This document shows, one piece after another, positions 8,086-26,700 of a DNA stretch of 64,000 bases (its first letter is position 1; each line of letters starts with the position of its first letter). The notes beneath the pieces were generated by a model. That model ran no database searches and had not been told where the DNA came from. It saw nothing but the letters and a program-made list of their open reading frames with translations. Source of the stretch: a virus (lineage: Duplodnaviria > Caudoviricetes); IMG/VR virus record IMGVR_UViG_3300029305_002190, positions 32,001-96,000 of that record; one strand, 5' to 3'. A program made the position numbers and the translations under genes.

Positions 8086-8098
8086 CTATGAGAACTAT

Positions 8099-8130
8099 GC
8101 CGTCATGGTGCGATTTTCATGGCGGTTTTA
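8099..8130 (+). terminator. Hairpin/terminator after ruvC
   Basis: GCCGTCATG...CATGGCGGT followed by TTTA. Confidence 0.5.
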
Positions 8131-8166
8131 TATATAAAAATTATGAACTAAAAAGGAGAAAACGAT

Positions 8167-8724
8167 ATGACTACTAAGGAACTAATTACACTAATGAGCG
8201 ACAACAGAAACAAGATGCTAAAAATTGAGCAGTTAGAAGCGGTTCTAAAAAAGAAATTAGAAGTGAAAGAATACATTAGCATCAAGTCAAAAAAGAGCCT
8301 TGTTGACGACATTGTAAACGAATGCATTCTATATGAAGATGGTATTTTTAAATTCAATGATATTGAAAAATATATTTGTTTCACCATGAGAGTTATTGAA
8401 GCTTATACAAATATTGAACTATCTGATGATTTAGAAGAAGAGTACGATCTACTGTGCGAGTCTAAGTTGCTTGAATCAATTATTAATACGTTCAAGAAGG
8501 AATATGACGACGTAAATATTCTACTTCAAATGAAGTGTGATTATGTATTAAATAACAATACACTTGCTGCACAGGTTGGTAGATTTTTCGATGGCATTTT
8601 GGAGAAGCTAGATATTGTCGTTGACACTCTGGCTAACAAAGTTGACGGTTCTGATTTTAAAAACTTACCCATTAGCAGTGAAGATATAAATAAATTAATG
8701 CAGTTCATTAATAAGCAGAAATAA
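8167..8724 (+). CDS. Hypothetical phage protein (possible tail assembly factor)
   Basis: RBS AAAGGAG. Lies upstream of the tape measure gene. Confidence 0.55.
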   Translation: MTTKELITLMSDNRNKMLKIEQLEAVLKKKLEVKEYISIKSKKSLVDDIVNECILYEDGIFKFNDIEKYICFTMRVIEAYTNIELSDDLEEEYDLLCESKLLESIINTFKKEYDDVNILLQMKCDYVLNNNTLAAQVGRFFDGILEKLDIVVDTLANKVDGSDFKNLPISSEDINKLMQFINKQK

Positions 8725-8740
8725 TATAAGGAGTGATTTT

Positions 8741-9286
8741 ATGGCTGTTCAATGTTTGGACGCTGCTTTTGCTGCGATTATTAAGGACTGCCAAGCTATT
8801 GCAGTGGAGGCAGTTAAAAACGCAGCCAAAAAAACACAAAAGGATATTTTAAAAGAAGCAGATAATTATTTGCAAAAATATTATAGCAATTATACACCTA
8901 AGAGATATAAACGCACACATCAATTACAAAATGCAATTAAGCCAGTGATTGAAGACCATTCAACTGGAACAAGTACTTCAATCGAAGTTGGTGTTGAATA
9001 CGACTCTAGTGCGTTAAAAGGTGCCTATAGAAGCAATTCTCGTTGGCATCAATCTGGAGGCGCTTGGAGGCCAGTTGTTGATTATACAGATTTTAGTTCT
9101 GACAATGGTATTCCAGAACCAGAATGGATTATAGGAAATTTTTTAGAAGGAATTCACCCATGGGCACAAACAGATGGAGAGTCTACTAATAGCCTTATGG
9201 AAGAATTTTTTGATGTTCAATTAGCTGGTCGTATTGAAAAATATGTTCAGGAAGAATTATTTGCTGCTATAACTAGCAGATTGTAA
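8741..9286 (+). CDS. Phage morphogenesis protein (HK97 gp10-like, tentative)
   Basis: YYSNYTPKRYKRTHQL motif. Directly precedes the tape measure gene. Confidence 0.5.
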   Translation: MAVQCLDAAFAAIIKDCQAIAVEAVKNAAKKTQKDILKEADNYLQKYYSNYTPKRYKRTHQLQNAIKPVIEDHSTGTSTSIEVGVEYDSSALKGAYRSNSRWHQSGGAWRPVVDYTDFSSDNGIPEPEWIIGNFLEGIHPWAQTDGESTNSLMEEFFDVQLAGRIEKYVQEELFAAITSRL

Positions 9287-9301
9287 TGGTGGTGAAATAA
9301 T

Positions 9302-12300
9302 ATGGGAAAAGATGTTAAGAAGAGATTTACGGTTAGTCTTGATATTGAAACCAAAGATGTTGAAAAACAAGTCAAAGCAACTGTTGGTAATCTAAAAACA
9401 ATTCTTGCGGATCTAGGTAAAGCATCTGATAAGATGGGTTATTTTAAAGAACTTGTTGATTATATTGGTCAGATTGATACAGCACTTACTGCATTAAGAG
9501 CAAAAAATAAAAATGCTTTTGACCATATGTTTGATGGTTTGGACGCAGATTTAAAGAAAGCGATGGAGGGCATTTTTGACACAAGTAGCAAAACAATGTC
9601 TGCACTTGATGCGCTTCGTGGTAAATTAAATGATGCATCAAAAAATGGTGCAGGAGTTAAAGAATTGAGACAGATCGCCTCTGAAATCAACGATTTGTTT
9701 ACCAGTCTTGGCAGAGCAGAACCAATTGATATTGATGCACAATTTTCTGGTAGAGGTAAAACAGAAGATAGAATAAATATATTAACCGATGCATTAGATA
9801 ATTTTGCAACTGTATGGGACGGCGTTAACAACAAGGTTAAGAGTGGATTTGGCTTTGGTGGCGCTGGTGGTATTGTAGAATTTAGTGAAGAAGTGCAAAA
9901 AGAGATTGATGCTTTAGAAGATAAAATTAAGTCAATTCAAGATCTAATGACAGAATTGCAAAATGTATTCAAAATGACCAAGGCATTTAGTGATGGCAAA
10001 GATGTGTCACTAGGATTCGAGGCCACAGAAGAATCAGCAAAAAACTTACTTGAGCAGTTTAAATTATTGTCTGCTACTAGACAAAAATTTCTTGAAGATG
10101 GGGACACATCATCACCTGCTTATTATGAAAATTTAATTCAGTACACTAAAGCTGCGACTCAACTAGTTGCTTTAAACGACGAGTTAGCAAAATCCAGTAA
10201 AGGTAGCCCAAAATTTTTAGCAAATGCGCTTTCTGGTGAGTTCGTAGATGTATATGACTTTATAGAGTCTTTTGATAAAAAGTTTGTGTCCGGTATTCAA
10301 ACCTCATTAAGTAAGATTGTTTCAGATGCACAAACTGGCATAGATAAAATTAAAGCAGATGCTCTGAAAAATATGTCACCAAGCACTGCTCAAGGAGCAG
10401 GAAGACCTGATGGTGGAAATGTTCCTGACGGAAAAGTGGAAAAAAACAAAGAGTTATCAAATTCCTACGAGGAATTGTCTAAGAAGGTTAATGAATATTA
10501 TGATATCCTTCAAAAAAGAAGCAAGTTTGATGAGGATTCTGATGAGTATAGACAGTTATCTTTTAGTCTTGACGCAATATCTGACTCCATAAAGAAAATA
10601 AAGTCATTAAATATTGATGAGACAATGGAGCTTACTGATGTTTTTGGAGATTTGGAATATGAAGAATATGGTCCAGAAGAAGCATTAAAAAGAATATGTA
10701 AAATACTACAGGTAGAGATTCCTTCTGCAGCCAAAACTGCAAAGAAAAGTCTTGATGAACTTGGAGGATCCACTGATGGCGGCACAGGTGTCTCAAGTGG
10801 TGGATCTGGCGGTACTATTACAAATGTCGATTTCACGTCTCTAGAAAATACTATTAAAGCGGAAATTGCATCTGTAGCAAATAAGTTAGATAGTGTTTTT
10901 AAAGTCGAAGTTGTGAAAAATGACACATCTGATATCAAAAATGCTATTGATGGAGTTAAATCAACCATTGAAAAGATTTCTGCAGAAATTGATGGTTACA
11001 ATGCATTAAAAAAGACTAACGCTCAGCAGGCTGAAGTCAATGCAATGAAGAATAATTTAACTCAGTTGTTCAAATTTGTATCTGAGTTTAATGCAAAACA
11101 AATTGATGGAAACTACCAACACCAGGAGATTAGCGCAGCAATTTTGTCAGATGGTTCAATATCTACTGGATATGGTGAACATGGTACTGTACCGTGGGAT
11201 AGGATGGCGAGCGCCCTAGTATCCAATTTGACAAAATCTTTGATGGTGGATATCCATTCTCATCCATGGGCACAAAATGGATTCTTAGATAGATATGCCA
11301 ACGATTCATTCAGTGGTTCAAAAGGTGACCTTGGTGCATTTAGATTCTCTAAAGAACTAGGTGCACAAATGGCAGCAATGATCACTGGCAATGTCATGAG
11401 AACTCTTGATGTAAGTAAGCTGACAGACGAGCAAATGAGACAATTCGGAAAAGCACTTGCTCAGATAGAAAAAACTCAAGCAAATACTCCTGAGTACTCT
11501 AAGTACATGGAGTACAAGAATGATAAATTGTATTATCATAGTCAACCAACACTGGATGAGCAACATAAAGTTACAGAGGCTTTTGAAAGCCTGATGTACA
11601 AAGCCTTTAAGGAGATAGGTTTATCAAAAAATAAAGTCGATAAGGAAATATTTAAAAAATATGACTTAACTGATGATGCACAGCTTACAGAGTTGGCTGA
11701 ACGCCTAGTTCATTTATCTCAGTCTTCACAGAACGCACTAAGTCCAGTTGAAAGACTTTCAGAGATTATCTCTCATTTTAGTGGCGACGTAAATAGCAAA
11801 ACAGCAAAAGAAAATTTTGAGGCGTTTACAAAAGGTGAGCTGACTGCCGCAGAAGTGTTCAATAACTTAAATCGTGATGGTCATACACTGAACCAAGAAA
11901 CGCTTGATTCTTTGTATAAAATTGATAGTGCCAATGAAATACCTGCTGTTGAATCATTGTTAACACAGGTTGTAAGTATTCTAAATACAATTGAATCAAG
12001 CGTGGCAAATATCAATAATAGCACAAGACAGAGCACAAGTGGTCAATTTGATACGGCAATCAATAACATCTTAGATATTCGTGAAGGTGTAAAAAACAAG
12101 AATATTTTAGCTGGAATAAAGTCAATTTTTGATCCTCTGAATATATCAGAATATAAAAACAAAGAAGTTTTGCAAATTGCTGATGGATCAATATTGGATG
12201 CAAAAGATTACATTCAGGACTTATTTGTGCAGTCTCATTCTGATGGCTCTGTAAACTTGGATGAAATGCAGGTTGCATTAGATAAATTTTATTTAGCAAT

Positions 12301-15300
12301 GTCTAATATCCAGGATGCGATTAAGCAAGTTGATCTGTACGAAGAGAGAACAGGCAAAACTTATGTAGATAGTGACGGCGATATAGCAAAGCTAACATTA
12401 AATGATAAATATAGAGAGATAACTGATGATAATTTATTACAGCAGTTATTGTATTTACTATCTCAAGCAAAAGTTGATATTAGTAAAAGCAAAGAATTTT
12501 ATCAAAATGGGTTTGGCGACAAGCAGACAGATTATGACTATGATAATAGTCAAGTGTCTAGTGTTCTGCAGTCCATACAATCTACATTAGACTCTATTTA
12601 TGGTGTCTTACATGGTTTTACTGGTATTGAGGCAGATAATAAAAATGCACTTAAGTATAAAGAGCCTGTAGTTGATACTGGTATAAATAGAAAAGAATTC
12701 TCTGAACAAGACCTTTCTGTTCTAAATTCTATTTTACAAGTACTACATGGCATTGATGGTTACTTGTCTACAAATAAACCTGATGACGTAACTGAAAAGG
12801 TTACTCAGGATAACACTGACATTTCTGAGCTTGTAAGCTTTATTAGATCAAAGCTATCTCAGCAACTTGCTACAGAAGATACATTGCAATCAATTAAGGG
12901 AGCAATAGAGCAAATTGCAGAACTTGCGAGATCAAAAGACGAATCTAAAAAGGACGATGGCGAAGATCTTACCCAAAACCTTAATACACTAATAAGTGCT
13001 TTGACTGCCAATGTGTCTACTTTAAAAGATGTAGCTAACGGAATTGTCCAGCACCAAAAGGCACAAAAATCTGATACAAGCAAGGCAATGGCCAGGATTC
13101 AAGATCCGACTGAACAGCAAATCATTTCTGGCATAGCAAAGAATTCTGTAATAGATCTTGGCACAGAAGTGGAAATTGAAAGTTTGCAGGCACTCGCAAA
13201 TGGCTTAGTTAAGGTTGAAGGTGCTTTTAAAAATGCAAATGGTCAATGGGAAGGGTTTGCTGTTAAGGTCAATGAAGCGAATGCAGCAGTCGATCTTGCA
13301 ATTAAGAAGCAGTCTGTATTTGCAAGAGCTTTGAACAAAGCTAAAGATATTGATGAAAATACATACCAATATAACAAAGAAGAAGTCGAGGCAAGGGCGC
13401 AAAAGCATCTTGAAGAGTATGCTGCTCAGGGCAAAAATGCAACAGTGCAATTTAAGGATAGTGGTAGATATACCATTACTATCCTAGAAGAAATTGATGG
13501 CTTATCTAAGCAAATCTTCCAGACATTTGATGAGAATGATGATAAGATTGAGCGTACCACTGTCACTATGTCTAATAAACAAAAACTTAAGTTAGAAAAT
13601 TTGCAAAAGAAGCTTATAGATAATGGTCTAACTAATGGTTTAATTAGCGACAAGGACAATGAGTATAAAAATTATCAAGCTGCTGCTGATGCATTAAGTA
13701 ACATGACTAATGCGTATAGTCAGATGGATAATATTTCCGACGTAGAGATTGCAAACTGGAAACAACAAATTGCACTTGTACAGCAATTAGGCGGTCAGGT
13801 AGAGGCATTAATTAATCAAAGAAAAGCAGTAAATGATCAGAAAGTTTTTGAATCTGATAGAACAAAAAAGCTAGGTAGGTTCAATTTAGACAAGGCAAAT
13901 CTTGAAAGCAATATCGACATGACAAAAATTTCTGATAAATTAAAATCAGATATTGCTGATGCAGGAAAAGCTATAGCAAATGCAACTGATGCAGACAGTT
14001 TAAAAATTGCAATCAATAACTGGGAAGCATTACAGAATCAAATTAAAGCAACTGCTGTTCAACAAGATTTATATATTAAAAAGACAAAAGAGATTAGCGG
14101 AGGCAATACCAAAAAAGGCCAAGCATATGGAACTAGTCAGCTACAGAATTTTACTGCAAGATATAATTCGCTAAGAACTGGCGCATCTGAAGTTGGTTTG
14201 AATGAGCAGTCCACTGTTGTTGCTAATTTGGCAAATGCGTACAAACAGTTGCAGGTGGCTCAAAGCGCATTTGTTGCAGGTGAAGACAAGACTTCTGCAG
14301 AATATGCGAAAAAAGTTGAAGTTTTTAAGGCCGCACAATTAGCATGTAACAATTATGCAAGGGAATTGAATAAAGTTGTCACTGCTTCAAAGAAGTTAGA
14401 AGCAGAAAGTGTTGCGTCTGATGTATTGGATGAAGATTTTAAAGATACAATTGATGGTCGTAAGGTTGCACTTAAAGATTTTGTTCAGACGACATATGGG
14501 TCAAAGGCAGTTGTTGGAGAATTTACTAATCAATTTAATGAATTAAACTTTGTTGTTAAAAATGGTGATGGCACGTTCACTAGAATGACAGCGTCTATTA
14601 ATGAAGCAAGAACGGCCATTCACGCAACTGCTGGTGCCACAGGAGAAGTTACTAACAAGTTTAAGTCATTTATTAATGAGCTTTCAGGAAAATTCAAATC
14701 AATTAGCACATACTTTATGGCATCGTTTGGTATCGAAGAAGTATGGCAACAGTTGAGACAAGGTATTCAGTATGTAAGAGAGATAGATTCTGCTTTAACA
14801 GAACTTAAAAAGGTTACAAATGAAACTGATGCAAGCTATGATGCGTTCTTGCAATCAATGTCCAAGACTGGCAGTGTTATTGGTGCGACAGTTCAAGATT
14901 TGACAACGATGGCTGCAGATTGGGCAAGACTTGGCTATTCTATGGAAGAGGCAGGTAAGCTTGCTGAGAGTACTGCTATCTTGCTTAATGTCTCTGAATT
15001 TGATGATGCTACTGCTGCATCTGAAGCATTGATTTCTACAATGCAGGCATTCAAGTATACTGCGGATGATAGTCAACATGTTGTTGACATCCTCAATGAA
15101 GTTGGTAACAATTACGCAGTATCCTCTGACGGAATTGCAACAGCACTACAAGATTCCGCTTCTGCATTGATGGAAGCTGGCAACAACTTAGAACAGTCAG
15201 TCGCTCTAGTAGCTGCTGCCAATAAGGTTGTTCAGGATCCTAATTCTGTAGGTAGTGCATTGCGTACAATCTCTCTAAGACTCCGTGGTACTTCAGTAGA

Positions 15301-18300
15301 AGTACTAGAAGAATTGGGAGAGGAAACTGATGGAGCAGTAGAAAGCATCAGTAAGATGCAAGAAAAAATTAAGGCACTAACTGGCGTAGATATTTTAACA
15401 GATAGTGGCTCTTATAAAGAAACATATACAATTCTAAAAGAAATCGGTACAGTTTGGGAAGACATGTCTGATATTGACCAGGCAGCACTACTCGAACTCA
15501 TGGCAGGTAAAAACCGTGCAAACACTCTAGCTGCCATCCTTGGCAACATGGAAGACCTAGAGGGTGCATACAACGATGCCTTAAAAGCAGAAGGCTCAGC
15601 ATTAAAAGAAAACGAAGCATACTTGGATTCCATTCAAGGTAGAATCGACCTATTCAAAAATTCACTCCAAACAATGTGGATGAATTTTGTTGACTCCAGT
15701 GTTGTCAAATTTATTGTTGATATCGGAACCGCCTTGATTAAAACAGCAGATGCGATGGGAGTTCTATCAACTGCAGCAGGTGGATGGGCTGGTATAAAAA
15801 CCATGATTAGTTCAATAAAAACTGATTTTGAGTCTATCAGCAATGGAACTTTTAACAAAGATATTTTTGGATTTAAGCAAATGCTTGAATCTGGCGATAT
15901 TGCCAAAAAGACTATTCAAGAAGTAGATAAGGCAATTCAAGACCAAACAGATACCAAAAATAAAAATGCTAAAGCAACAAAAGAGCAAATTAATGCAGAT
16001 ATACAAAAAATTAGCACACAGCAGACTGAAAATGCTGTAGAGAGTGCTGGTGCAGTGCAAACAGGTGTAGATACTGCACAAAAAATAGCAAACGAAAAAG
16101 CCACATGGGGACAGGTTGCAGCAGAAAGAGCTCTTGCTGTTGCCAAGGGTTTAGTAAAAGGACTTCTAATAGGTGCAGTAGTATCCCTAGCAGCAACTGC
16201 GATTACAGGTGTTATTAGTGCAATTTCTGATGCTTCAAAACGCATGGATGAATTGACAGATAGTGCAATTAAGTCTGCTGAAGAAACCAAAGAAGCACAA
16301 GAAAGCATTTCTGATTACAAAGATGAAATTGCAGATCTTGGAAAAGTCCTCAATGATAATGCGTCTTCGGAGACAGAACTTTACGACGCACGTAAAAGAT
16401 TAATTGAAATTCAAAATGAATTGATTGATAAATTTGGTCTAGAAGCAAAGGGATTAGATTTAGTTACTGATGCAATTAATGGTCAAACTAATGCTTTGGA
16501 TAAATTATCTCAGAAGTCTGCCTCCGACTGGATGAAAGAAAATATGGAAGCATATAAAGAAGCCAAAAATGAAATGGCAAAAACATATGATTCCAATAGA
16601 GAACTTCTGTTATTTGGTCAATCCAATTCTTCTGTAACAGGAACATCTGGAACTTTGGCTAATGCATCTCAAGATGTAATTAATGATTATCAAGATGGAT
16701 TGAAACGGATCATCGAAGATGAATATGGTGGAACTTTATCTGAAAAAATTTCCTCTAGTGTAGACGACTTAGGAAATACAATTAGTTTTGATAATATTTA
16801 TGCTTCTTTTGAAGGTAAAACAACCGAAGAACTAGATAAGGTATTTGATGCAATTCAAACATATTTATTGGATTTTGAAAATAATTATGATGGCATTGAC
16901 CTTAGTGATGAAATTATAAGAGTTCAAAATTTAAGAAACAAGTATGTTGACGAAGATTATAAAAAATCTAGAGAGTTATATGATTCTGGTCGCCAACAGG
17001 AAGCAATATCTAATTACGCCAAAGAGTATGGGGCTATTCTAGATGCAGAAGAAGAAATTTACAATGCAAAAAATGATGAAGAAAAACTAAATGCACTTAA
17101 AGAGTATAGGACGGCACTAGAGGCAGCAAAAAATGCAAAAACTGATGACCCACACATGGATGACTATTTTGACAAGATTGGCAAAAAATTTGATGAACAA
17201 GAGTATGAATTAAAAGTCAAATTGGACGAAGATGGTCTAAAGTCTAATCTGGAAGAAATAATTAACAGTGGAGGAGAAAGTGGCCTATCTGTTTTGGATG
17301 ATGTTGCAATCCAAGATATGGTTAATAGAGGACTAAATGTCGAGGGTGCAACTGATTCTAGTGGCAAATACACACAGGAACAAATCAGTGGATTGATTGC
17401 GTTACAATCAGAAGCAGATAAGGCTGGTATTAGCGTTGATAGCCTAATTAGCATTTTAACTAAACTTGGATTGGTTGCAGGCAAGCCTATAGAACAATCT
17501 GCTGAAAGTGTCAAGGCAGTTGCTGAAACATACTCAACACTTCGTGAGTCTGTTGATGGCTATAACGAAGTCCTCACACGAACCTCCGAAATCGTCTCTG
17601 ACAATACCGAAGTAACCCAAGAATATAAAGACTCCTTGAAAAGTCTTGGATTTTCCGAAGAAGAACTTGCAGATTGTTTTGATGAAAACAATAAGTTAAT
17701 TGTTAAGAACGCCGCTTTGCTAAATAAGCTTGTCAAACAAAAGAAACAAGATAAAACAGCAACCGTTCAGCAAGCCAAGGCATATGGACAGCTTCAGTAT
17801 AAAACTACTATTTCTCAAATTGGTCAACTTGTCAATAGAATGGCTACCGAAATTAAGGCCACAGGTTATGTATCTGCTGCTACATTGGATAACATTAGTG
17901 TGTTGCGTGAACAGTTAGATGTTATTAAACAAACCATTCAGCAATACGCTTTGCTCGAATTAAGCCTCAGCGATGCAGCTCAGGCTTATAGCGATTTTGA
18001 AGCAGCAAAACAAAGAGATGCACAACTAACTTATGGCGATTCAATGGTAGAAATGTTGGATGTTATCAATGAAGGTTTTAAGACTGGGCAGGTAGGCACC
18101 GAGGCGTTTCAGTTTGCTGTTAAGGCGATTGTTCCTCCTGAGTTTTATGAGAACATTGACGATGCTCAAGATAGAATGCAAGCAATTCATGATTATGTTG
18201 ATAAGCATCCTTTGTTTGCAGATTATTTCACCATTGACGAGGGTGAAATCTCCATCACAATGGACAACATCAAGGCATTTATTAAAGATTGTCAAGATGT

Positions 18301-21300
18301 TGGTCTTTTCACTGGAACTGATCCTTATGACTTTGATTTAAATTCTGGTTTTATTAATGACTCTGAAAAAGAACAGATTAGCGAATTAAATAACGAATTA
18401 GTTAAATTCCAGGATACATATAACGGCACTGTTGATCTCGTTAATAGAAAACGAATTGATATAACCGAAGAAAACATTGAGACCGTTCGTGGTTGGGGAG
18501 GCAGTATGGCGGAGGTCAACGTAGGTGACTACATGACCGTTGCCTCACAGACATATCAAGACGGTAAGGCAGCAATTGTTGTTACTCCAATTCTTCCGAA
18601 TGGAGAATTAATGAAACAGGATGAGTTGGATGCGTATATTGACGATGTCATTGCTAAAACTAATGCCGGTAGTGGTAATTACGCTGATTATGACACGAAA
18701 GGCATCTTAATGGGTGTGTTTGGAGATGCAGACACATGGGAGGCTAATTTAGCGGCATCCGATGAGTTTGTAAATCGTGTCCATGAGATCCATGAAATTA
18801 TTAATTCGTTTGGTGATTCTGTAACATTAAAAGACTTTGCAGATGAACTTGGTATGACCGAAGCGGCAGCTCTTGCAATGCTTACAGAGTTTGAAAAGTA
18901 TGATGCAAGCTGGGGAGACCTTATAGCAAGACTTACCACAACTGGATTAGATCGAGAAATAAACGATGCGACAGATGCTTTAGAAAAAGCAATAACCACA
19001 CAAGAAGAATTCATAAAGAGTGGTCAACCATTATATGATGAAAATGGAGAAATAACATCTGGATATAAGGCTGTTGTTGATGCGGTCAATAAGGCTCGTG
19101 ACGGATTAGATAATGCTACACAGGCAGCGATAAACAACGCACAGACATATACTCAAGTTGAATCAATATTAAAGGGTATGTCTGGAGAAATGAAATACAC
19201 TCAAGAGCAAGCAGACGCACTAGCTAGATCACTTGGGTTAATTGACGAGAATGGCCACATCACAATAAATACCGAAACTGGTGCTCTTGAATTAACCAAT
19301 GAGCAAGTTGATATTTTAAATCAAAAATTAACTGGGTTAGAAGAGCCAACCATGCTGGATATACAGCTTGCATATGATGATATTTATGGTCAAGTAGAAG
19401 AATTAAAGTCATACTTAGCCGACCCAGATAATTATGATGGAACTATTTTGGCGGATCTTGAGCTTACAGATTCAAGTGAAGCAGAAGTGCAAGCAGAGCT
19501 TGATAGATTGAATTCTATTTTAGGAGTTCTTGAATTGCATTATAATCTTTCCCCAAGTGTAGAGCAAAATGATGGCAACTTAGAAAAGCTTGGTAATTGG
19601 GAAACCAATGGCATCAATATAACAATTACTGGTGATAGTTCTAGTTTTGATGCGGCGGTAGCAGAAGTCAATGCTGTTGAGATGGAAGATAAACCAGTTA
19701 ATATTACAGCAGATCCAACAGAAGCAAATGCTAATATTGATTCTGTTGATAATAATAATATTGCAGACAAAAAGCCAGTGATTGCAATGCAAGGCGTTTC
19801 TGCTGCATTAACAAATATTTATTCTATTGATAGTGCGCTTGATGAATTACCAAACTATAAATCTGTAACTGTTGATGTTATATATAGGCAAACCGGATCT
19901 CCACCTAGTGGGGGTGTTGGTGTTGATGGAAATTTCCATGTGTCTGGTGATGCATTTGCAGGGGGTACCATTGGCGCACCAAGAAATGAAACAGCATTGA
20001 TGGGAGAACTTGGACCAGAAATATTAGTCAGGGATGGTAGATGGACTACTGTTGGAGAGAATGGCGCAGAATTTACACAAGTTAAAAAGGGCGACATAAT
20101 TTTTAATCATAAACAGTCTGAGCAACTACTTAAAAATGGCTATGTAACTGGCAGAGGAAAAGCATATGCAGGTGGTACAGCTTATGGTTTTGGTATTTTT
20201 GATTCATATGTTGGTGATGACGATGCTTTCAAAAATGGCTCCGATAAGTGGGTTAATCCTGGAGAAAATGCTTGGAGTGATGCCGCAGACGATGTTTCTG
20301 ATGCTGCAGATGACGCAGAACAAATTGTAGATTTCATTGAAATGAAGTTAGAAGAAATCGAAGCTATTATTGAAAAAACTACAACTAAGATTGCTAATTT
20401 CCTCGATGACACTACAAGTATTAAAAGCAAAGACGAACTCTATGACGAACTAATAAAAGCGGAAAAAGATAAGTCCGAAGCTTATTTAAAAGCTGCTCAA
20501 AAGTATAACGTAGAAGCTGCGGCCGCTCTATCTGGTGTGCCACAGCAATATCAAAAAATGGCCCGTAATGGTGCTATTGCCATTAAAGATTTCATTGGAG
20601 AAGACCAAGTTGAAATAGCAGAGGCAATCCAAGAATATAGAGATTGGGCAGCAAAAGCAGATGAAGCGGAAAACGGACATCTAGAAGCTATTGCTGCTAT
20701 TTCTGCGCATAGAGTTGAACAACTTGAAGATATTGCTACAGATTTTGAAAATATCGTTAGTATCTCTAAGTCTCATTCTGATTTGTTGCAGGCAGAGATG
20801 GATTTAATTGAAGAATCTGGAAATAGACTATCAGAGAGTTATTATGAAGAGCTTAAGAAGCATTCTCAGAAACAACTAGATGATATGCAAAATGAGCGTG
20901 CAGCGCTACAAAAGATTTTAGACGATTCTGTTGCTGCAGGTGATGTTGTTATTGGCTCTGATGACTGGTATTCTATGCTTGAGACTATCTATGAGGTCGA
21001 TCAAGAAATTGTTGATTGTAAGATTAGCTTAGAGGAATTCCAAAATGCGATAAATGAGCTATACTGGGATAACTTTGATAAGCTGATTGATGAAATCGAT
21101 AATGTTAACTCTGAGTTATCTAATCTATATGATCTTGTTTCCGACACTGACAATATAGTGGACGATACTGGAAATTGGACTGATGACGGCATTACTGCTC
21201 TTGGTTTACTTGCGCAGCAAATGGAGAATGCACAGTTCAAGTCTCAGCAATACGGTGAAGCAATTGAGAAACTTAAGAAAGATTATGCCGATGGTTTATA

Positions 21301-22492
21301 TAGTACTGATGAGTATAATGAAAAATTAGCAGAACTAACAGATAGTCAATATGATGCAATTAAGTCTTACGAAGACGCAAAAGACGCTATTGTTGATCTA
21401 AATAAAACTCGTGCAGAAGCTGTCAAAAAATATATGCAAGAAGAAATTGACAAGTATGGAGAACTTATCGAAAAGAAAAAAGAATCTCTGAACGCAGACA
21501 AAGAGGCACGTGATTTTGAAAAGTCTGTGCAAGAATCAAACAAAAACATAAAAGACATTGAAAGACAAATAGCTGCTCTCCAAGGAAATACATCTTCTAG
21601 CGCCATGGCACAAAGAAAGCGTCTTGAGGCTGAATTGCTCAAAGCTCGTGAGGAACTAGATGATCTGTATTACGATCACAGTGTTGAGAAACAACAAGAG
21701 GCACTTGATAAAGAACTTGAGGATTACACTAAAAACAAAGAAGATCAGATGGATGCTCTTGATGAGTATTTGGAAAAAGAAGAACAGGTAATTGCTGATA
21801 GTTTTGATCTAATAGCTGAAAATACAAAAAATATTGCCGACGTTCTAATCGGTATTTCTCAGGAGTATGGCGTATCGATTTCCGATGCTGTTGCGGCACC
21901 TTGGATTAACGGGACAAATGCTATTGGAACATATCAAGAACAACTAAACACTTCTGTAAGTGCTACGACAAAAAATCTTGAGACTCTAAAGAAACAGTTA
22001 GAAGACCTGCAGACTCAGGCGGATAAGACTGCTAATAGCATTGTTAACGCAACCCATTCTACAATTGTTGAAACCAATGATGGTCATCAGACTAGTATTA
22101 AGGGTTATGCCAAGGGTAGCAAGAGTGTTGAGTATGACCAGTGGGCACTTATTGACGAACTTGGTGACGAATTACAAATTACACCAGACGGATCGGGTCG
22201 TTTGGCTTATATCAAGAAAGGTACTGGAATTTTAAACAACACTTTAACTGAGAGATTAATGGATCTAGCTATGGACCCCACTAGTATGATTGAAAATAGC
22301 AGACCTGTTATTGGAACTCCTGGCATTACAACAACCAATAATACAATTGAGATAGATGCCAGCGTCGGTACATTACTCCACGTAGAACATCTTGATGGCA
22401 ACAATCCTTCCGAAGTTGCTAAACTTATTGATAAGGCTTGGGAAAAGAAGATGCAAACACTTAATAACAGTATTAAAAAGTTTACAAGATAA
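9302..22492 (+). CDS. Giant tape measure protein (TP901-type core), 4396 aa
   Basis: Core EIDSALTELKKVT...DWARLG...NEVGNNYAVSS...GSALRTISLRLRG...AGKNRAN at about 14780-15680. Later FAGG...GELGPE and YAKG...DELGDE motifs. Largely helical. Confidence 0.93.
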   Translation: MGKDVKKRFTVSLDIETKDVEKQVKATVGNLKTILADLGKASDKMGYFKELVDYIGQIDTALTALRAKNKNAFDHMFDGLDADLKKAMEGIFDTSSKTMSALDALRGKLNDASKNGAGVKELRQIASEINDLFTSLGRAEPIDIDAQFSGRGKTEDRINILTDALDNFATVWDGVNNKVKSGFGFGGAGGIVEFSEEVQKEIDALEDKIKSIQDLMTELQNVFKMTKAFSDGKDVSLGFEATEESAKNLLEQFKLLSATRQKFLEDGDTSSPAYYENLIQYTKAATQLVALNDELAKSSKGSPKFLANALSGEFVDVYDFIESFDKKFVSGIQTSLSKIVSDAQTGIDKIKADALKNMSPSTAQGAGRPDGGNVPDGKVEKNKELSNSYEELSKKVNEYYDILQKRSKFDEDSDEYRQLSFSLDAISDSIKKIKSLNIDETMELTDVFGDLEYEEYGPEEALKRICKILQVEIPSAAKTAKKSLDELGGSTDGGTGVSSGGSGGTITNVDFTSLENTIKAEIASVANKLDSVFKVEVVKNDTSDIKNAIDGVKSTIEKISAEIDGYNALKKTNAQQAEVNAMKNNLTQLFKFVSEFNAKQIDGNYQHQEISAAILSDGSISTGYGEHGTVPWDRMASALVSNLTKSLMVDIHSHPWAQNGFLDRYANDSFSGSKGDLGAFRFSKELGAQMAAMITGNVMRTLDVSKLTDEQMRQFGKALAQIEKTQANTPEYSKYMEYKNDKLYYHSQPTLDEQHKVTEAFESLMYKAFKEIGLSKNKVDKEIFKKYDLTDDAQLTELAERLVHLSQSSQNALSPVERLSEIISHFSGDVNSKTAKENFEAFTKGELTAAEVFNNLNRDGHTLNQETLDSLYKIDSANEIPAVESLLTQVVSILNTIESSVANINNSTRQSTSGQFDTAINNILDIREGVKNKNILAGIKSIFDPLNISEYKNKEVLQIADGSILDAKDYIQDLFVQSHSDGSVNLDEMQVALDKFYLAMSNIQDAIKQVDLYEERTGKTYVDSDGDIAKLTLNDKYREITDDNLLQQLLYLLSQAKVDISKSKEFYQNGFGDKQTDYDYDNSQVSSVLQSIQSTLDSIYGVLHGFTGIEADNKNALKYKEPVVDTGINRKEFSEQDLSVLNSILQVLHGIDGYLSTNKPDDVTEKVTQDNTDISELVSFIRSKLSQQLATEDTLQSIKGAIEQIAELARSKDESKKDDGEDLTQNLNTLISALTANVSTLKDVANGIVQHQKAQKSDTSKAMARIQDPTEQQIISGIAKNSVIDLGTEVEIESLQALANGLVKVEGAFKNANGQWEGFAVKVNEANAAVDLAIKKQSVFARALNKAKDIDENTYQYNKEEVEARAQKHLEEYAAQGKNATVQFKDSGRYTITILEEIDGLSKQIFQTFDENDDKIERTTVTMSNKQKLKLENLQKKLIDNGLTNGLISDKDNEYKNYQAAADALSNMTNAYSQMDNISDVEIANWKQQIALVQQLGGQVEALINQRKAVNDQKVFESDRTKKLGRFNLDKANLESNIDMTKISDKLKSDIADAGKAIANATDADSLKIAINNWEALQNQIKATAVQQDLYIKKTKEISGGNTKKGQAYGTSQLQNFTARYNSLRTGASEVGLNEQSTVVANLANAYKQLQVAQSAFVAGEDKTSAEYAKKVEVFKAAQLACNNYARELNKVVTASKKLEAESVASDVLDEDFKDTIDGRKVALKDFVQTTYGSKAVVGEFTNQFNELNFVVKNGDGTFTRMTASINEARTAIHATAGATGEVTNKFKSFINELSGKFKSISTYFMASFGIEEVWQQLRQGIQYVREIDSALTELKKVTNETDASYDAFLQSMSKTGSVIGATVQDLTTMAADWARLGYSMEEAGKLAESTAILLNVSEFDDATAASEALISTMQAFKYTADDSQHVVDILNEVGNNYAVSSDGIATALQDSASALMEAGNNLEQSVALVAAANKVVQDPNSVGSALRTISLRLRGTSVEVLEELGEETDGAVESISKMQEKIKALTGVDILTDSGSYKETYTILKEIGTVWEDMSDIDQAALLELMAGKNRANTLAAILGNMEDLEGAYNDALKAEGSALKENEAYLDSIQGRIDLFKNSLQTMWMNFVDSSVVKFIVDIGTALIKTADAMGVLSTAAGGWAGIKTMISSIKTDFESISNGTFNKDIFGFKQMLESGDIAKKTIQEVDKAIQDQTDTKNKNAKATKEQINADIQKISTQQTENAVESAGAVQTGVDTAQKIANEKATWGQVAAERALAVAKGLVKGLLIGAVVSLAATAITGVISAISDASKRMDELTDSAIKSAEETKEAQESISDYKDEIADLGKVLNDNASSETELYDARKRLIEIQNELIDKFGLEAKGLDLVTDAINGQTNALDKLSQKSASDWMKENMEAYKEAKNEMAKTYDSNRELLLFGQSNSSVTGTSGTLANASQDVINDYQDGLKRIIEDEYGGTLSEKISSSVDDLGNTISFDNIYASFEGKTTEELDKVFDAIQTYLLDFENNYDGIDLSDEIIRVQNLRNKYVDEDYKKSRELYDSGRQQEAISNYAKEYGAILDAEEEIYNAKNDEEKLNALKEYRTALEAAKNAKTDDPHMDDYFDKIGKKFDEQEYELKVKLDEDGLKSNLEEIINSGGESGLSVLDDVAIQDMVNRGLNVEGATDSSGKYTQEQISGLIALQSEADKAGISVDSLISILTKLGLVAGKPIEQSAESVKAVAETYSTLRESVDGYNEVLTRTSEIVSDNTEVTQEYKDSLKSLGFSEEELADCFDENNKLIVKNAALLNKLVKQKKQDKTATVQQAKAYGQLQYKTTISQIGQLVNRMATEIKATGYVSAATLDNISVLREQLDVIKQTIQQYALLELSLSDAAQAYSDFEAAKQRDAQLTYGDSMVEMLDVINEGFKTGQVGTEAFQFAVKAIVPPEFYENIDDAQDRMQAIHDYVDKHPLFADYFTIDEGEISITMDNIKAFIKDCQDVGLFTGTDPYDFDLNSGFINDSEKEQISELNNELVKFQDTYNGTVDLVNRKRIDITEENIETVRGWGGSMAEVNVGDYMTVASQTYQDGKAAIVVTPILPNGELMKQDELDAYIDDVIAKTNAGSGNYADYDTKGILMGVFGDADTWEANLAASDEFVNRVHEIHEIINSFGDSVTLKDFADELGMTEAAALAMLTEFEKYDASWGDLIARLTTTGLDREINDATDALEKAITTQEEFIKSGQPLYDENGEITSGYKAVVDAVNKARDGLDNATQAAINNAQTYTQVESILKGMSGEMKYTQEQADALARSLGLIDENGHITINTETGALELTNEQVDILNQKLTGLEEPTMLDIQLAYDDIYGQVEELKSYLADPDNYDGTILADLELTDSSEAEVQAELDRLNSILGVLELHYNLSPSVEQNDGNLEKLGNWETNGINITITGDSSSFDAAVAEVNAVEMEDKPVNITADPTEANANIDSVDNNNIADKKPVIAMQGVSAALTNIYSIDSALDELPNYKSVTVDVIYRQTGSPPSGGVGVDGNFHVSGDAFAGGTIGAPRNETALMGELGPEILVRDGRWTTVGENGAEFTQVKKGDIIFNHKQSEQLLKNGYVTGRGKAYAGGTAYGFGIFDSYVGDDDAFKNGSDKWVNPGENAWSDAADDVSDAADDAEQIVDFIEMKLEEIEAIIEKTTTKIANFLDDTTSIKSKDELYDELIKAEKDKSEAYLKAAQKYNVEAAAALSGVPQQYQKMARNGAIAIKDFIGEDQVEIAEAIQEYRDWAAKADEAENGHLEAIAAISAHRVEQLEDIATDFENIVSISKSHSDLLQAEMDLIEESGNRLSESYYEELKKHSQKQLDDMQNERAALQKILDDSVAAGDVVIGSDDWYSMLETIYEVDQEIVDCKISLEEFQNAINELYWDNFDKLIDEIDNVNSELSNLYDLVSDTDNIVDDTGNWTDDGITALGLLAQQMENAQFKSQQYGEAIEKLKKDYADGLYSTDEYNEKLAELTDSQYDAIKSYEDAKDAIVDLNKTRAEAVKKYMQEEIDKYGELIEKKKESLNADKEARDFEKSVQESNKNIKDIERQIAALQGNTSSSAMAQRKRLEAELLKAREELDDLYYDHSVEKQQEALDKELEDYTKNKEDQMDALDEYLEKEEQVIADSFDLIAENTKNIADVLIGISQEYGVSISDAVAAPWINGTNAIGTYQEQLNTSVSATTKNLETLKKQLEDLQTQADKTANSIVNATHSTIVETNDGHQTSIKGYAKGSKSVEYDQWALIDELGDELQITPDGSGRLAYIKKGTGILNNTLTERLMDLAMDPTSMIENSRPVIGTPGITTTNNTIEIDASVGTLLHVEHLDGNNPSEVAKLIDKAWEKKMQTLNNSIKKFTR

Positions 22493-22549: not shown

Positions 22550-23692
22550 ATGTCAGTTTATTTACCCATTATTTCTTATAAAGGCAAAACAAATTATGAC
22601 TTTCAATTAACGGTAGCGCACTTTGACGCTGACTCAGGAGAATTTGACAGTTATCAAAATATGGAGCCAATTTATACTGAGAATTACGACGGGTCTTTGC
22701 GATATGATTTTGGAGCGAGATATACAGACGTGGCTCGTCCAGTAGTTACTTTTGTAGATCCTGATGGAGATAATATCTCTCCCTATAAAATTAAAGCAGT
22801 TTTACGTTGGCTAACTGGTGCAAAAGATGTATCATTTATGGACATTTGCGACGAAACAGGAGAGAGCATGTGCTCTTATATTGGCCGTTTTACCGATGTA
22901 AAATTATATAAAATTGATGCTCGTGTTGTGGGTATAACGGCTATGTTTACTAGTACTTCTCCTTTTGCGTATTCTCCAATTAAAGAGGCCAGGTTTACTG
23001 TTACTCAAGAAGGAACGGATTTTATAATCGATTGCGATAGCGATGATGAATATAATGTTCTACATCCTACGGTAGAATTTACAAACACTCAAGCAAAAGA
23101 CGAAACAAATCCAGACAAGATTATGTTGTCTCTGTACAACGAAACGATGAATAATGAAACAACTTTTAAAAATTTAAGCACTGGTGAAACTGTCACTATA
23201 AATAGTTCTCTTGCTGTCTACTCAAATAATACTGCACGTATTTTTAATGATGATTACAATTTTGAGTTCCCAGTTTTGAGTTGCGGTAGCAACAATTTTA
23301 CAGCAATTGGCGAAGGAGAATTAGTTATTCGTTTTAGATACCCTATGAAACTAGCAGACGGCCTACTAGACGCTCAACAGCTTAATAATAGCCCTGTCGT
23401 TTATGTTGAAGAAACTACTGTATTTATTAAAGGCGACCTTACTCAAAATCCACCTAACAACACCTCCATTAAAGTAAATGGTACAACACTAACTATTCGT
23501 GGAGATATGAAGTCTGTCAAGGTGCCTGGGTTTAGCGAGGTTGAGAATGGAAATCTATTTATTGATTACGGCAATGTCAATTGTGCATTTGACAGTCTAT
23601 ATGCAATTGTCGAAAATGGCGAACTCTTTATTGGTAAGGATCTTGATAAAGTCGATCCTGACTACAATTTTCCAGGAAGCAAAAATAAATAA
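22550..23692 (+). CDS. Distal tail protein (Dit-like) with C-terminal extension
   Basis: Follows the tape measure gene. RWLT, FTSTSPFAYS and FP.L..G.N motifs of Dit/phage tail family proteins. Confidence 0.75.
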   Translation: MSVYLPIISYKGKTNYDFQLTVAHFDADSGEFDSYQNMEPIYTENYDGSLRYDFGARYTDVARPVVTFVDPDGDNISPYKIKAVLRWLTGAKDVSFMDICDETGESMCSYIGRFTDVKLYKIDARVVGITAMFTSTSPFAYSPIKEARFTVTQEGTDFIIDCDSDDEYNVLHPTVEFTNTQAKDETNPDKIMLSLYNETMNNETTFKNLSTGETVTINSSLAVYSNNTARIFNDDYNFEFPVLSCGSNNFTAIGEGELVIRFRYPMKLADGLLDAQQLNNSPVVYVEETTVFIKGDLTQNPPNNTSIKVNGTTLTIRGDMKSVKVPGFSEVENGNLFIDYGNVNCAFDSLYAIVENGELFIGKDLDKVDPDYNFPGSKNK

Positions 23693-23718
23693 AGAAAAAT
23701 TAATATAGAAAGGAGGTA

Positions 23719-26700
23719 ATGCTTATGAGACTTCCCAAAAATATATTTAATAACACCTATACCAAGCCTAAGATTTTTCTGTGTGAAACTGATAAACAAA
23801 AAATGGGCGTATTAAACACAACAGACACGCATGTATCTCTAAAGTTCAAAGCATACAGCGAATTAACTTTCAATATAGATCGTACTTATATTGACACACT
23901 AACTGGCGATAAACAAACTCACCTGTTATATGATCGAATTGAACATCCTCGTCTGATTTTGCTTGATAATATTGGCTACTTCCAGATTCAAGCACCAGAC
24001 ATGTCTACGGATAGCTTTAAGGAAAGCAAAGCCATTGTTGCCTATTCATCGGAATATGCTTTGTCCCAAAAGTATATTGTTGATCTACATGTAAATACAG
24101 GTAAAGTTGACTCTGTTGAAGTTATTTATTCAGAAGAAACTGGCAGTGCGCTAGAACCAGTCGTTTTCTATAACCAAGCAAACCCAAGATTGAGTCTACT
24201 AGATCTAGCACTTGAAGGTGTGTACGGATGGAAAATCGGCCACATTGATGACTCTCTAAAAACATTATCCCGTTCTTTTGATATTGATAGGCAATCTGTG
24301 TATGATTTCTTGATGAATGACGTATGTAAAAAATTCAATTGTTATATTATTTTTGATACATTAAAAAATGAAATCAACATATACGCAGAGGCGAAAATCG
24401 CCAAATTTATTGGTGACGGCAGAACAAAAAAGTTTACAATATCTCCTTCATTTTATAAGATAAATACCGTATCTATTGATGGCTACAAAACAACTCAATG
24501 GGAATATGATAAAAAAACTGGTGCGCTGACATTTACAAAAGCACCTGAGAATTTATCCAATATTGAAGTTGTCGATGGTGGCCTAACGGAGTGGGAAACA
24601 GACGTGTTTGTCACTTTTGAAAATTTAGCAAAAGAAATGCAAGTGTCATATAATGCTGATGATATTAAGACCCAATTAACCGTTACTTATGGTGATGATC
24701 TAGATATTAGAGAAATCAATATGGGTTCTCCATACATAACCGACTTGTCTTATTACTATACGGTTGATTGGATGGGTCAGGATCTATATGATGCTTACAC
24801 AGCATACCTAAAGAAATCTCAAACATCTCAAACAAATTACACTAAGAACTCACAAGAGATGCTTGAAATTTCTGATCATCAGTATTTTGAAGAGCACAGA
24901 CTTTCTATGGCATATTCTACGATTACTGTTGATAGTAATACTATTGGTACTTATTATGTAAAAGATTCTTCTAACGGCGGATATTTCTTCAAAGAAGTTA
25001 CTTTGCCAGATGACTATAAGGCTTATACCACATACTATCAATTTGATGGCGTAAAGCTAACATCTGAAAAGGTAAATGATTTGTACATGGCCATTCGTGA
25101 TAATTTTAAAACTGGCTCTGTAGAAAAAATCAATGAACTTGCTGATGCATTTGAGTTTATGAATGACAGTGATAGTTATGGCATAGATTATTTGGCTAGG
25201 TATTTAAACAACTCTAATGCGCCAGAAAAAAAGAAATCTTATGTTATGAACTTCTTAAAAGAAATGTGGGAACAAGTTGGTAGAACTCCTCTAAAGTTTT
25301 TATATCAAGAAACATTTAAGATTCTACAGAGTACAAATATTGATTGGGCACAAGAACATATTGATCCTGATGGCAATAAAACATATCATGAAAATTATCC
25401 TTGGTATTATGCAATTTTATTGTTCTTGGAGTCTATAGATAGTGCCATCGCTCTAAGAGATCAGCAGACTGATAAACTGCAACAGGCATATGACAAGCTA
25501 CAAGCAGAAAACATTGAAATTAGCAACGGCCTTTTAATGGAGAATAATTTCACAGAAGCACAGCTGATTAGATTAAGTGCATTCATAAAAGAAGATGAGC
25601 TTCATGTTGAAGACATAATCGAAACTGAATATGATACCCTAGAAGATTCTTTTAAGGTCAAACAATACGCAATGGAAGCTGGCAGAATTGAATTGCACAA
25701 AAGAAGTCAACCACAATTGCAATTTTCTATGACAATGGCAAACATTTATGCCATTCCAGAATTTGAGCCAATCATTCATCAATTCCAACTTGGCAAAGTA
25801 ATTAAAGTCGGACTTCGTTTAGAGACTAAAATTGTAGAGTTTGTTGGAGATGGTGCAAGAAAACAATTTGTAATTGCTCCACCATTCTACAATGTTAAGA
25901 CTGTATCTATTGATGGCGTTGAAACAACTAACTGGCAGTATGATAACATAACTGGTCTTTTAATGCTAAAATCATATAGCGCACCAAAAAGAGGCACTCG
26001 TATCAAAGTTATTGGTGAAAATAACTATATTAAACAGTCTAGATTGCTACAAGTTGATATGGGATTAGATGATCTTTCAGATTTTCAAGCACAGTTTGGT
26101 GAACTAACAGATCTTCGTAATCAATCTGATATTCATGCAGACTTACTATCACAAGCTATTCAAGCTGGTAAATCAGTAGCTAGTTCACAAGACAATTGGA
26201 ACACTGGTGTGGATATGGCTATTAGCACAGATATTAAAATTCAACAGGGTCTGCTGGATTCTGCGACTGTGCTAAAATCAATGGATGGTACTCAGGGAAC
26301 AGAAATCGATAAATATGGTATACATCTTAGAAAAGTTAATCCAGATACAGGTGAAATAGATCCAAAACAAGGCTGGATTACAAATAATATGATGGCGTAC
26401 ACTGATAACAATTGGTTATCATCTAAGAGCGTATTTGGTGAATATCAAATCAAAGGAGAGTCGTCTCCAAGATGGGGTTTGCTTGCAGACGCTTGTATTG
26501 CTTCTTATATTGAAGGTTCAACGTTGATTGGTGGTAGACTTAGTATTGGTGAGCGATCAGATGGATCATATAACTTCTCTGTTGATTACGATGGTAACAT
26601 GATAGCTCAGAGTGCAGATGTTGTTGGTAAGATTACTGCAGATAGTGGCTCTATTCGTGGTGACCTTGAAATATCTGGTGCATTAAAACATACGAATGGC

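Follow-up and report, generated by a model that had tools for sequence, protein, structure and literature searches.

The JAMM/MPN+ enzymes, among them AfJAMM, PfJAMM1, Rpn11, CSN5 and AMSH as well as the bacterial Prok-JAB family (PF14464), Cap3 and BilC, are found as stand-alone proteins or within a lid complex. They carry the residue set E...HxH...S...D, and the spacing of the JAMM motif is given as HxH-x7-S-x2-D (PMC300881). Another branch of the JAB superfamily, Tox-JAB-2/DUF4329 (PF14220), typically forms the C-terminal tip of polymorphic toxins that are accompanied by an immunity gene, and it was described as having an odd distribution which includes nucleocytoplasmic large DNA viruses (NCLDVs) and some phages (Zhang et al., 2012; PMC3482391). 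A JAB-superfamily domain is also described in the siphophage tail cluster, in lambda TAPK, a small separate protein where it is joined to an NlpC/P60 domain and which is paired with the ubiquitin-like (Ubl) protein I (Iyer et al., 2006; PMC1779556). Giant multidomain products of virion genes with mosaic, swapped enzymes are described as well, namely the polyvalent proteins, whose domains include the JAB clade RadC (Iyer et al., 2017; PMC5512222), and the MuF polymorphic toxins (Jamet et al., 2017; PMC5576092). In this paper we looked at a JAB/MPN-like domain that lies inside a giant tail tape measure protein (TMP), encoded in a 64,000-nucleotide stretch of Caudoviricetes phage DNA. This whole stretch is called the window here, all positions are counted from its first letter, and it comprises bases 32001-96000 of a 109,183-base viral contig (IMG/VR record IMGVR_UViG_3300029305_002190) that is 69% complete according to CheckV.

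An enzyme inside a TMP is not in itself unusual. Embedded lytic domains with peptidase or transglycosylase motifs are found in T5 pb2 and in mycobacteriophage TMPs, and they are presumably used at infection. They differ from the domain described here in fold and chemistry, and they lie in the middle or C-terminal part of the TMP, whereas the JAB-like domain lies in an N-terminal extension. JAB domains, TMP-borne enzymes and polyvalent proteins are thus each already known. What is new is a JAB-like clade not covered by any family model, with a predicted expansion of the active-site loop and seated in a TMP, together with evidence that suggests interchangeable effector domains in giant TMPs. Our literature search returned no paper that ties TMPs to JAB, JAMM, MPN, DUF4329 or deubiquitinases; the supplements of PMC5576092 and PMC5512222, which it did not cover, might list cases. 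In the main text of these two papers the term 'tape measure' occurs 0 times, and it is the use of a TMP as the carrier that sets the present case apart from polyvalent proteins and MuF toxins. With slightly more confidence than doubt, we favour the reading that the domain is a catalytically intact JAB-superfamily zinc hydrolase and one of the alternative effector cargos of a polyvalent TMP.

A JAB-type residue set inside a tape measure protein

The 4,396 amino acid product (P0001) of the single open reading frame (ORF) concerned is, by its profile matches, a TP901-type TMP. Residues 1819-2132 match TIGR01760 (tape_meas_TP901) of NCBIfam (E 1.8e-29), residues 1854-2069 match PhageMin_Tail (PF10145) of Pfam (E 5.1e-21) and residues 1740-4170 match phrog_4211, 'tail length tape measure protein', of PHROGs (E 1.6e-85), while the gene is located between chaperone-like genes and tail-tip genes. 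A preliminary description of this DNA had reported a JAB/MPN-like metalloprotease motif embedded in the TMP at 11110-11420, which corresponds to TMP residues 603-706. Both the embedding and the placing of the motif residues proved right, and the codons agree in the frame of the ORF:

9302..22492, plus strand: giant tail tape measure protein gene, a single ORF of 4,396 amino acids
11024..11731, plus strand: JAB/MPN-like domain, residues 575-810, from homologues, the AlphaFold2 model and fold matches
11126-11128, plus strand: E609 (gag), candidate general base, present in 42/42 rows of alignment A1 and in 13/13 full-length TMPs, at the start of strand 34-41 of the model
11255-11263, plus strand: H652-S-H654 (cat tct cat), candidate zinc ligands, both His invariant, at the C-terminal end of strand 73-79
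11312..11329, plus strand: S671...D676 (F-S-G-S-K-G-D), by conservation the candidate catalytic Ser (agt, 11312-11314) and third zinc ligand (gac, 11327-11329), with D676 at the start of helix 102-111

One of the questions that such a motif raises is whether it could have arisen by chance. H652xH654 is the only HxH among the 35 His of the whole protein. The pattern HxH-x(5-30)-S-x(1-5)-D occurred at least once in 11.3% of 1,000 shuffles of the protein, and the bare pattern is therefore not significant. A chance motif was rejected because the residues are conserved and the fold matches. Residues 580-770 were searched against 1.84 billion representative proteins, which yielded 42 homologues at E <= 0.001, 32 of them at E <= 1e-30. 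All 42 are very long proteins (771-6,026 amino acids) in which the match lies 250-1,120 residues from the N-terminus. Alignment A1 contains 42 rows, the query and one stretch each from 41 homologues, and leaves out P0016, which ends in the middle of the domain, and the first of two copies in P0011. Although identity to the query goes down to 23% in A1, E609, G625, H652, H654, D676 and G696 are invariant, and Q608, P655, F670, S671 and G675 are at least 90% conserved. The conservation that the preliminary description looked for in homologues is thus found at E609, H652, H654 and D676. For the serine it had offered S671/S673; here S671 holds and S673, which is variable, has to be dropped.

When 13 full-length TMPs were aligned, E609, H652, H654, S671 and D676 were invariant, and invariant residues fell into two clusters only, the JAB-like site and the TMP core. 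The JAB-like domain forms the second conservation peak of the protein, with 0.54 per 100 residues against 0.70-0.76 in the core. A helical stretch directly 3' of the domain, at residues ~811-900 (window 11732-12000), reaches 0.42 per 100 residues, nearly the level of the domain, and may be a partner or regulatory module of the same cassette.

The spacing is H654-x16-S671-x4-D676 and is longer than the canonical H-x-H-x7-S-x2-D, as had been observed from the start; the canonical spacing is the one seen in the 30 Prok-JAB sequences that we fetched. The length of the HxH-to-Ser loop varies among the homologues, and the most distant members have x17-S-x2-D (F-S-x-x-D). Some TMPs contain two JAB-like copies, namely P0011 (~300-490 and 707-898), P0033, P0044 and P0124, and weaker, partial second matches were found in P0029, P0010, P0048 and P0052. 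The first copy of P0011 keeps E, HSH, S and D.

Predicted fold and relation to JAB families

The AlphaFold2 model of residues 575-810, built from the 42-row alignment, has a pLDDT of 93.6 and a pTM of 0.89. DSSP of this model agrees with the preliminary description in that the domain is a beta-rich block within a helical protein. In the model strand 34-41 begins with E609, strand 73-79 ends with the HxH, and helix 102-111 has D676 as its first residue. A glutamate that begins a strand, an HxH that finishes one and an aspartate at the N-terminus of a helix make up the JAMM layout.

A Foldseek search of the PDB gave no match at E <= 0.001, and the rows at the head of its list (E 0.0066-0.16) belong, with few exceptions, to MPN/JAMM proteins or to cytidine deaminases, the former being an EMC8-type subunit, STAMBPL1, CSN5, Sst2, AMSH, Rpn11, BRCC36 and PfJAMM1. 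Cytidine deaminases share the MPN/JAMM fold. VIA-align, which is independent of Foldseek, was run against 48,161 representative chains and gave 31 rows at Z >= 5. Judged by their titles and by what is known of the complexes, at least 29 of the 31 are MPN/JAMM proteins or complexes; 2kks and 2kcq, which make up the rest, come from structural genomics and have titles that name no family. The best match is PfJAMM1 (5ld9; Z 8.6, rmsd 2.8 Å over 113 residues), followed by CSN5 (7.4), Rpn11 and Sst2 (both 7.3), Cap3 (6.7), the bacterial Ubl-deubiquitinase 8tyy_B (6.3), RadC (6.2), AfJAMM (6.0) and BubCD (5.0). These matches carry weight because the list is so uniform and because of where the motif residues sit on the model elements. 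An MPN (deaminase-like) alpha/beta fold for residues 575-810, as first proposed, is supported by the model and by both structure searches, and the domain would carry the same E...HxH...S...D set on the same secondary-structure elements as the JAMM/MPN+ enzymes.

At the level of sequence the relation is far less apparent. No significant sequence match to the JAMM/MPN+ enzymes was found. None of the clan families PF01398, PF14464, PF04002, PF14220 and PF15659 appeared for the protein and the domain at E <= 1, or for the 42 members at E <= 10, among the matches listed, which cover 25 of 47 families, and on the phage contig neither the Prok-JAB model PF14464 nor, even at E <= 1, the DUF4329 model PF14220 gave a match. 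We compared the family by hhalign with a Prok-JAB set (30 sequences from 29 of 151 sampled Bacillota genomes) and with a 5-sequence DUF4329 alignment, drawn from a set found in 5 of 301 Bacteroidota genomes and in ORF24 of phage OP1. Against Prok-JAB only the strand ending in HSHP was aligned (P 0.0012, probability 19%). Against DUF4329 the alignment extends over 96 columns and matches the E, the HxH and the FS..D of the two families with one another (P 0.0016, probability 16%). The HxH of the TMP domain falls on the HSHP of Prok-JAB and on the HSHG of DUF4329. As a yardstick, Prok-JAB and DUF4329, both accepted clan members, were compared by the same procedure and gave P 0.0028; as aligned here, the match between the domain and DUF4329 is no weaker than that. 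Comparisons with single sequences were uninformative, with a probability of 0.2% for OP1 ORF24 and of 1.5% for lambda K, of which only the HSHP strand was aligned.

The DUF4329 proteins have the same E, H[ST]H, S and D and an enlarged HxH-to-Ser loop, HxH-x12-S-x2-D, which is between the canonical x7 and the x16-17 of the TMP domain, and their signature '[ND]-x-F-S-x-x-D' is in line with the TMP domain. The closest named clusters in the ESM Atlas, as a lead only, are DUF4329 and Toxin-JAB1 (both with a score of 0.91). Structural look-alikes in BFVD (E 5e-5 to 1e-3) are NCLDV proteins and gut-phage proteins labelled 'minor capsid protein', and the former recall the odd host range reported for Tox-JAB-2/DUF4329 (Zhang et al., 2012). 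Based on sequence and embedding, the DUF4329/Tox-JAB-2 branch appears to be the closest relative of the domain.

The setting of the domain differs from that of its relatives. It lies mid-chain in a 4,396 amino acid structural protein, unlike the JAMM/MPN+ enzymes, and it is internal, unlike the C-terminal DUF4329 toxin tips; no immunity gene was identified for it, in the course of work that included no systematic search for one. In contrast to JAMM/MPN+ systems no Ubl/E1/E2 neighbourhood was found on the phage contig, and a Lambda_tail_I homologue, which would be the counterpart of lambda protein I, is likewise absent from its 109 kb. In phage OP1 (L006) the DUF4329-like ORF24 (20486-20857) is located among tail-fibre genes, and the tape measure gene of that phage (8074-13555) is interrupted by a homing endonuclease gene.

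Distribution and the variable slot

A search with residues 575-810 gave 64 matches, all of them in proteins of 2,455-6,286 amino acids and nearly all with PF10145, and thus among the homologues found (42/42 and 64/64) the domain family is confined to giant proteins. It was not found by tblastn in 50,697 phage records, nor did a profile search at E <= 10 reveal it in two TMPs that are relatives in the core, those of Brevibacillus phage Sundance (2,528 amino acids) and Enterocloster phage PMBT24 (1,508 amino acids). Four giant TMPs on contigs of metagenome-assembled genomes (MAGs), found with the full-length alignment, have no such domain. Scans with the domain gave no match in GTDB genome contigs and JGI metagenome contigs and a single locus, L002, in IMG/VR.

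By searching with the TMP core instead (residues 1800-2150), 1,154 giant proteins of 2,417-7,693 amino acids were collected at E <= 1e-20. Among the 120 best core relatives, with 70-95% core identity, the domain is present in 29 and absent from 91, which is the patchy presence across TMP homologues that had been expected. On a FastTree core tree, whose resolution is limited at 70-95% similarity, the trait needs at least 17 state changes, compared with a mean of 26.1 and a minimum of 21 for shuffled traits. The domain is therefore partly inherited, yet often gained, lost or recombined.

The layout of the protein around the domain and the genes that follow it are:

9302..10729, plus strand: conserved N-terminal anchor, residues 1 to ~476, with a Gly-rich linker at its end (blastp)
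10730..14221, plus strand: variable slot, residues ~477-1640, holding the JAB-like cassette here (blastp of relatives)
14756..15697, plus strand: canonical tape measure core (TIGR01760 1819-2132; PhageMin_Tail 1854-2069), the most conserved region of the protein (Pfam, NCBIfam)
16127..16234, plus strand: hydrophobic, membrane-helix-like segment, residues 2276-2311 (Kyte-Doolittle window 19 above 1.5)
22550..27927, plus strand: tail-tip genes, for a 380 amino acid DUF6558 phage tail protein and a 1,402 amino acid minor tail protein (Pfam, PHROGs)

By blastp, relatives share residues 1 to ~476-493 and everything from ~1575-1640 onward, and not the stretch between them, which accounts for the patchy presence of the domain. 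The N-terminal anchor is common to relatives without the JAB-like domain (L012, L011, P0105, P0111, P0112 and P0168; query ~1-476/493). In the 44 of the 120 proteins in which both anchors were detected the slot is 454-2,673 amino acids long. One of the relatives, P0119 (81% core identity), has in the same slot an ART-PolyVal domain, an ADP-ribosyltransferase (residues ~1402-1574; 35.8 bits against a cut-off of 31.2) and a PBECR5 domain, a predicted RNase (residues ~2108-2280; E 1.1e-25). Both families were defined from phage polyvalent proteins, for which Iyer et al. (2017; PMC5512222) argue that they travel in the virion and serve as injected early effectors. The TMP of the window has just one recognisable enzyme-like domain. 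The JAB-like domain would be one of several alternative cargos of this bay, and the TMP would thus behave like a 'polyvalent' effector protein.

The lengths of these TMPs are extreme, with 4,396 amino acids here and up to 6,300 in relatives (P0014, P0083, P0088 and P0170) on contigs of up to ~172 kb. A TMP acts as a ruler with ~1.5 Å per residue. Giant TMPs imply tails of 0.6-0.9 micrometre, unless much of the chain is cargo and not ruler. The TMP gene of the window is uninterrupted. In relatives it is split in several cases (L011:14755-14952, L010:12181-13940, L008:16558-17904; proteins P0002, P0004, P0006 and others), and many homologous ORFs end at about position 85 of the PhageMin_Tail profile. 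One gap, of 218 nucleotides, matches a group I intron model (34.5 bits against a gathering score of 50, E 3.9e-7), and two larger gaps hold ORFs of 330-348 amino acids with CapR and zinc-finger domains; group I introns were considered as the cause of the gaps and explain only the one. The related MAG-borne phage L011 has, upstream of its TMP, a full group I intron (77.5 bits) as well as a RAGATH-18 RNA, at 4620-5008 and 6265-6325.

Residues 2276-2311 of the TMP may insert into a membrane, judging from their hydrophobicity. The 380 amino acid tail protein matches DUF6558 and DUF6558_C of Pfam, and the minor tail protein matches phrog_6211 (E 8.8e-26). The minus-strand ORFs of at least 80 amino acids within 8000-15000 (9469-9834, 10510-10968 and 13205-13450) do not overlap 11024-11731. 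Within the tail module there is a gene for a RuvC-like Holliday junction resolvase (7579-8085, plus strand), separated from the TMP gene by two small ORFs, and the same arrangement upstream of the TMP is found in PMBT24. Among the structural genes lies an HNH/homing-endonuclease-like ORF (1136-2158, plus strand; phrog_374, E 5.7e-41; no Pfam match). A large serine recombinase/integrase (30088-32028, minus strand; phrog_95, E 2.5e-99) is located where gene orientation and GC skew switch and suggests a temperate lifestyle for this phage of roughly 150 kb, which also codes for a DnaE-type polymerase, an NAD ligase, a ribonucleotide reductase and RecJ. The window has no Rfam match at gathering scores. 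The host is probably a gut member of the Bacillota, because Clostridium innocuum, Brevibacillus, Enterocloster and Bacillus are the hosts of its nearest relatives in culture.

Possible roles of the domain

Based on our model, residues 575-810 would form a very divergent member of the JAB/MPN+ (JAMM) proteins, nearest to DUF4329/Tox-JAB-2 in sequence. If the site works as it does in solved JAMM enzymes, a zinc ion would be bound by H652, H654 and D676, with E609 activating a water molecule and S671 stabilising the intermediate, while the long, length-variable loop between HxH and S..D may shape the substrate site. The domain would not belong to the tail-measuring machinery and would be one alternative cargo of the N-terminal bay in the giant TMPs of phages of ~150-170 kb, whose closest relatives in culture infect gut Bacillota. 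The TMP would become part of the tail and leave it at infection, and the released enzyme would attack a host molecule, in which it would most likely cleave a peptide or isopeptide bond. From the context, delivery with the virion as an effector is plausible.

Several points weigh against this scheme. The domain is recognised neither by Pfam at E <= 1 nor by PHROGs or NCBIfam, PADLOC gave only scattered weak matches on the 42 members, and no PDB match was found by sequence or by profile. The hhalign probabilities are low (16-19%), the x16 between HxH and Ser differs from the defining x7, Foldseek support in the PDB is weak (E >= 0.0066), and the VIA-align scores are middling, with a single row at a Z of 8 or more, below which a match can mean no more than a widespread arrangement. 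Most slots without the JAB-like domain have no recognisable domain at all, and the analogy with polyvalent proteins rests on one relative with recognised effector domains, P0119. The N-terminal third of the TMP would have to reach the cytoplasm, and three folded domains of 26 kDa would, as we estimate it, be a tight fit in the lumen of the tail tube.

One possible option, which we consider unlikely but still a serious rival, is that the domain is an assembly or autoprocessing protease that cuts the TMP or another tail protein, for example to release the N-terminal extension at the Gly-rich linker (~487-506). TMPs of several phages are proteolytically matured, and here a conserved Gly-rich stretch lies directly before the cassette, as would suit JAMM enzymes, which cut after a C-terminal Gly-Gly; the linker may also be just a hinge. 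A JAB domain in a tail-assembly protein is known from lambda TAPK (Iyer et al., 2006). Yet the domain is missing from 91 of the 120 closest giant TMPs, whose anchor and core are nevertheless the same, so that most relatives would need another maturation protease, and the patchy presence therefore speaks somewhat against a role in core assembly.

Another hypothesis, raised in the preliminary description and given rather little credence here, is that the domain is a Ubl deconjugase that counters Bil, CBASS-Cap2 or Bub-type defences of the host, acting once it has been injected or, during assembly, on freshly synthesised tail proteins. Its fold resembles Cap3 (Z 6.7), the Ubl-deubiquitinase 8tyy_B (Z 6.3) and BubCD (Z 5.0), yet these scores are no better than those of RadC or of eukaryotic MPN proteins. 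The patchy, cassette-like distribution suits arms-race genes, and Bil was reported to conjugate Ubl to the central tail fiber, the recruiter of the TMP in tail assembly (10.1101/2023.09.04.556158). On the other hand, the DUF4329/Tox-JAB-2 branch to which the domain seems closest is said by Zhang et al. (2012; PMC3482391) to be without the Ubl-tail tunnel residues, and searches of the 109-kb contig gave neither a Lambda_tail_I or ThiS-type Ubl nor a partner of the E1 or E2 kind. The PADLOC BilC model weakly matches one of the 42 members (E 0.0018), which counts in favour of the hypothesis. In 301 genomes from the order of a MAG that carries a related phage, which is the likely host order, it gave no match at E <= 1e-10; no positive control was matched either, which makes this a weak argument. 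No result obtained here supports the specific role against Bil or CBASS, and the arguments against a deconjugase are mild.

It is still less probable, in our view, that the domain is a cell-wall isopeptidase which cleaves Gram-positive stem peptides or cross-bridges during penetration and so replaces the M23, lysozyme or NlpC domains of other TMPs. With Pfam, no recognised peptidoglycan hydrolase domain was found in the TMP or in the two downstream tail-tip genes, the nearest cultured relatives infect Gram-positive Bacillota, and homologous TMPs have LysM, CW_7 or PG_binding_1 wall-binding modules. These modules, however, are at the far C-terminus (~residue 3,940 onward), thousands of residues from the JAB-like domain, and in the usual view it is the C-terminal end of a TMP that leaves the tail first. 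We know of no peptidoglycan hydrolase with a JAB fold, and the domain is absent from most relatives.

There is only a slim chance that the domain processes host nucleic acids or nucleotides, as proposed for RadC and the Tox-JAB toxin domains (Zhang et al., 2012; Iyer et al., 2017). In its favour, RadC was matched by structure (Z 6.2), deaminases, whose fold is that of JAB proteins, occur in the Foldseek and VIA-align lists as well, and the slot of P0119 contains a predicted RNase. Against it, the proposal in the literature for divergent JAB clades of toxins and polyvalent proteins is itself a prediction, the residues (E, HxH, S, D) are the peptidase set, and a nuclease carried beside the DNA end of the phage would have to be tightly controlled.

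We return to the zinc hydrolase carried as an exchangeable cargo. In its boldest form, which we regard as improbable, the giant TMPs of this clade of gut phages would be the long-tailed counterpart of injected polyvalent proteins, with a swappable N-terminal bay that is threaded through the tube and delivered just ahead of the DNA. The JAB-like module would then be the first isopeptidase to be delivered with the virion, stripping proteins of ubiquitin-like or other modifications added by the host and so disarming an immune system.

TMPs are usually viewed as rulers, at most with a wall-degrading motif. Our data suggest that a large and abundant clade, represented by the 1,154 giant TMPs, uses the ruler as a carrier of interchangeable enzymes. 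The domain adds to the JAB superfamily a family with an unusual active-site loop that is recognised by no curated library. As a defined, foldable domain of 236 residues with four obvious mutant controls, it can be used for finding the target. If it is delivered and active, it would add to the known routes by which phages pre-load counter-measures.

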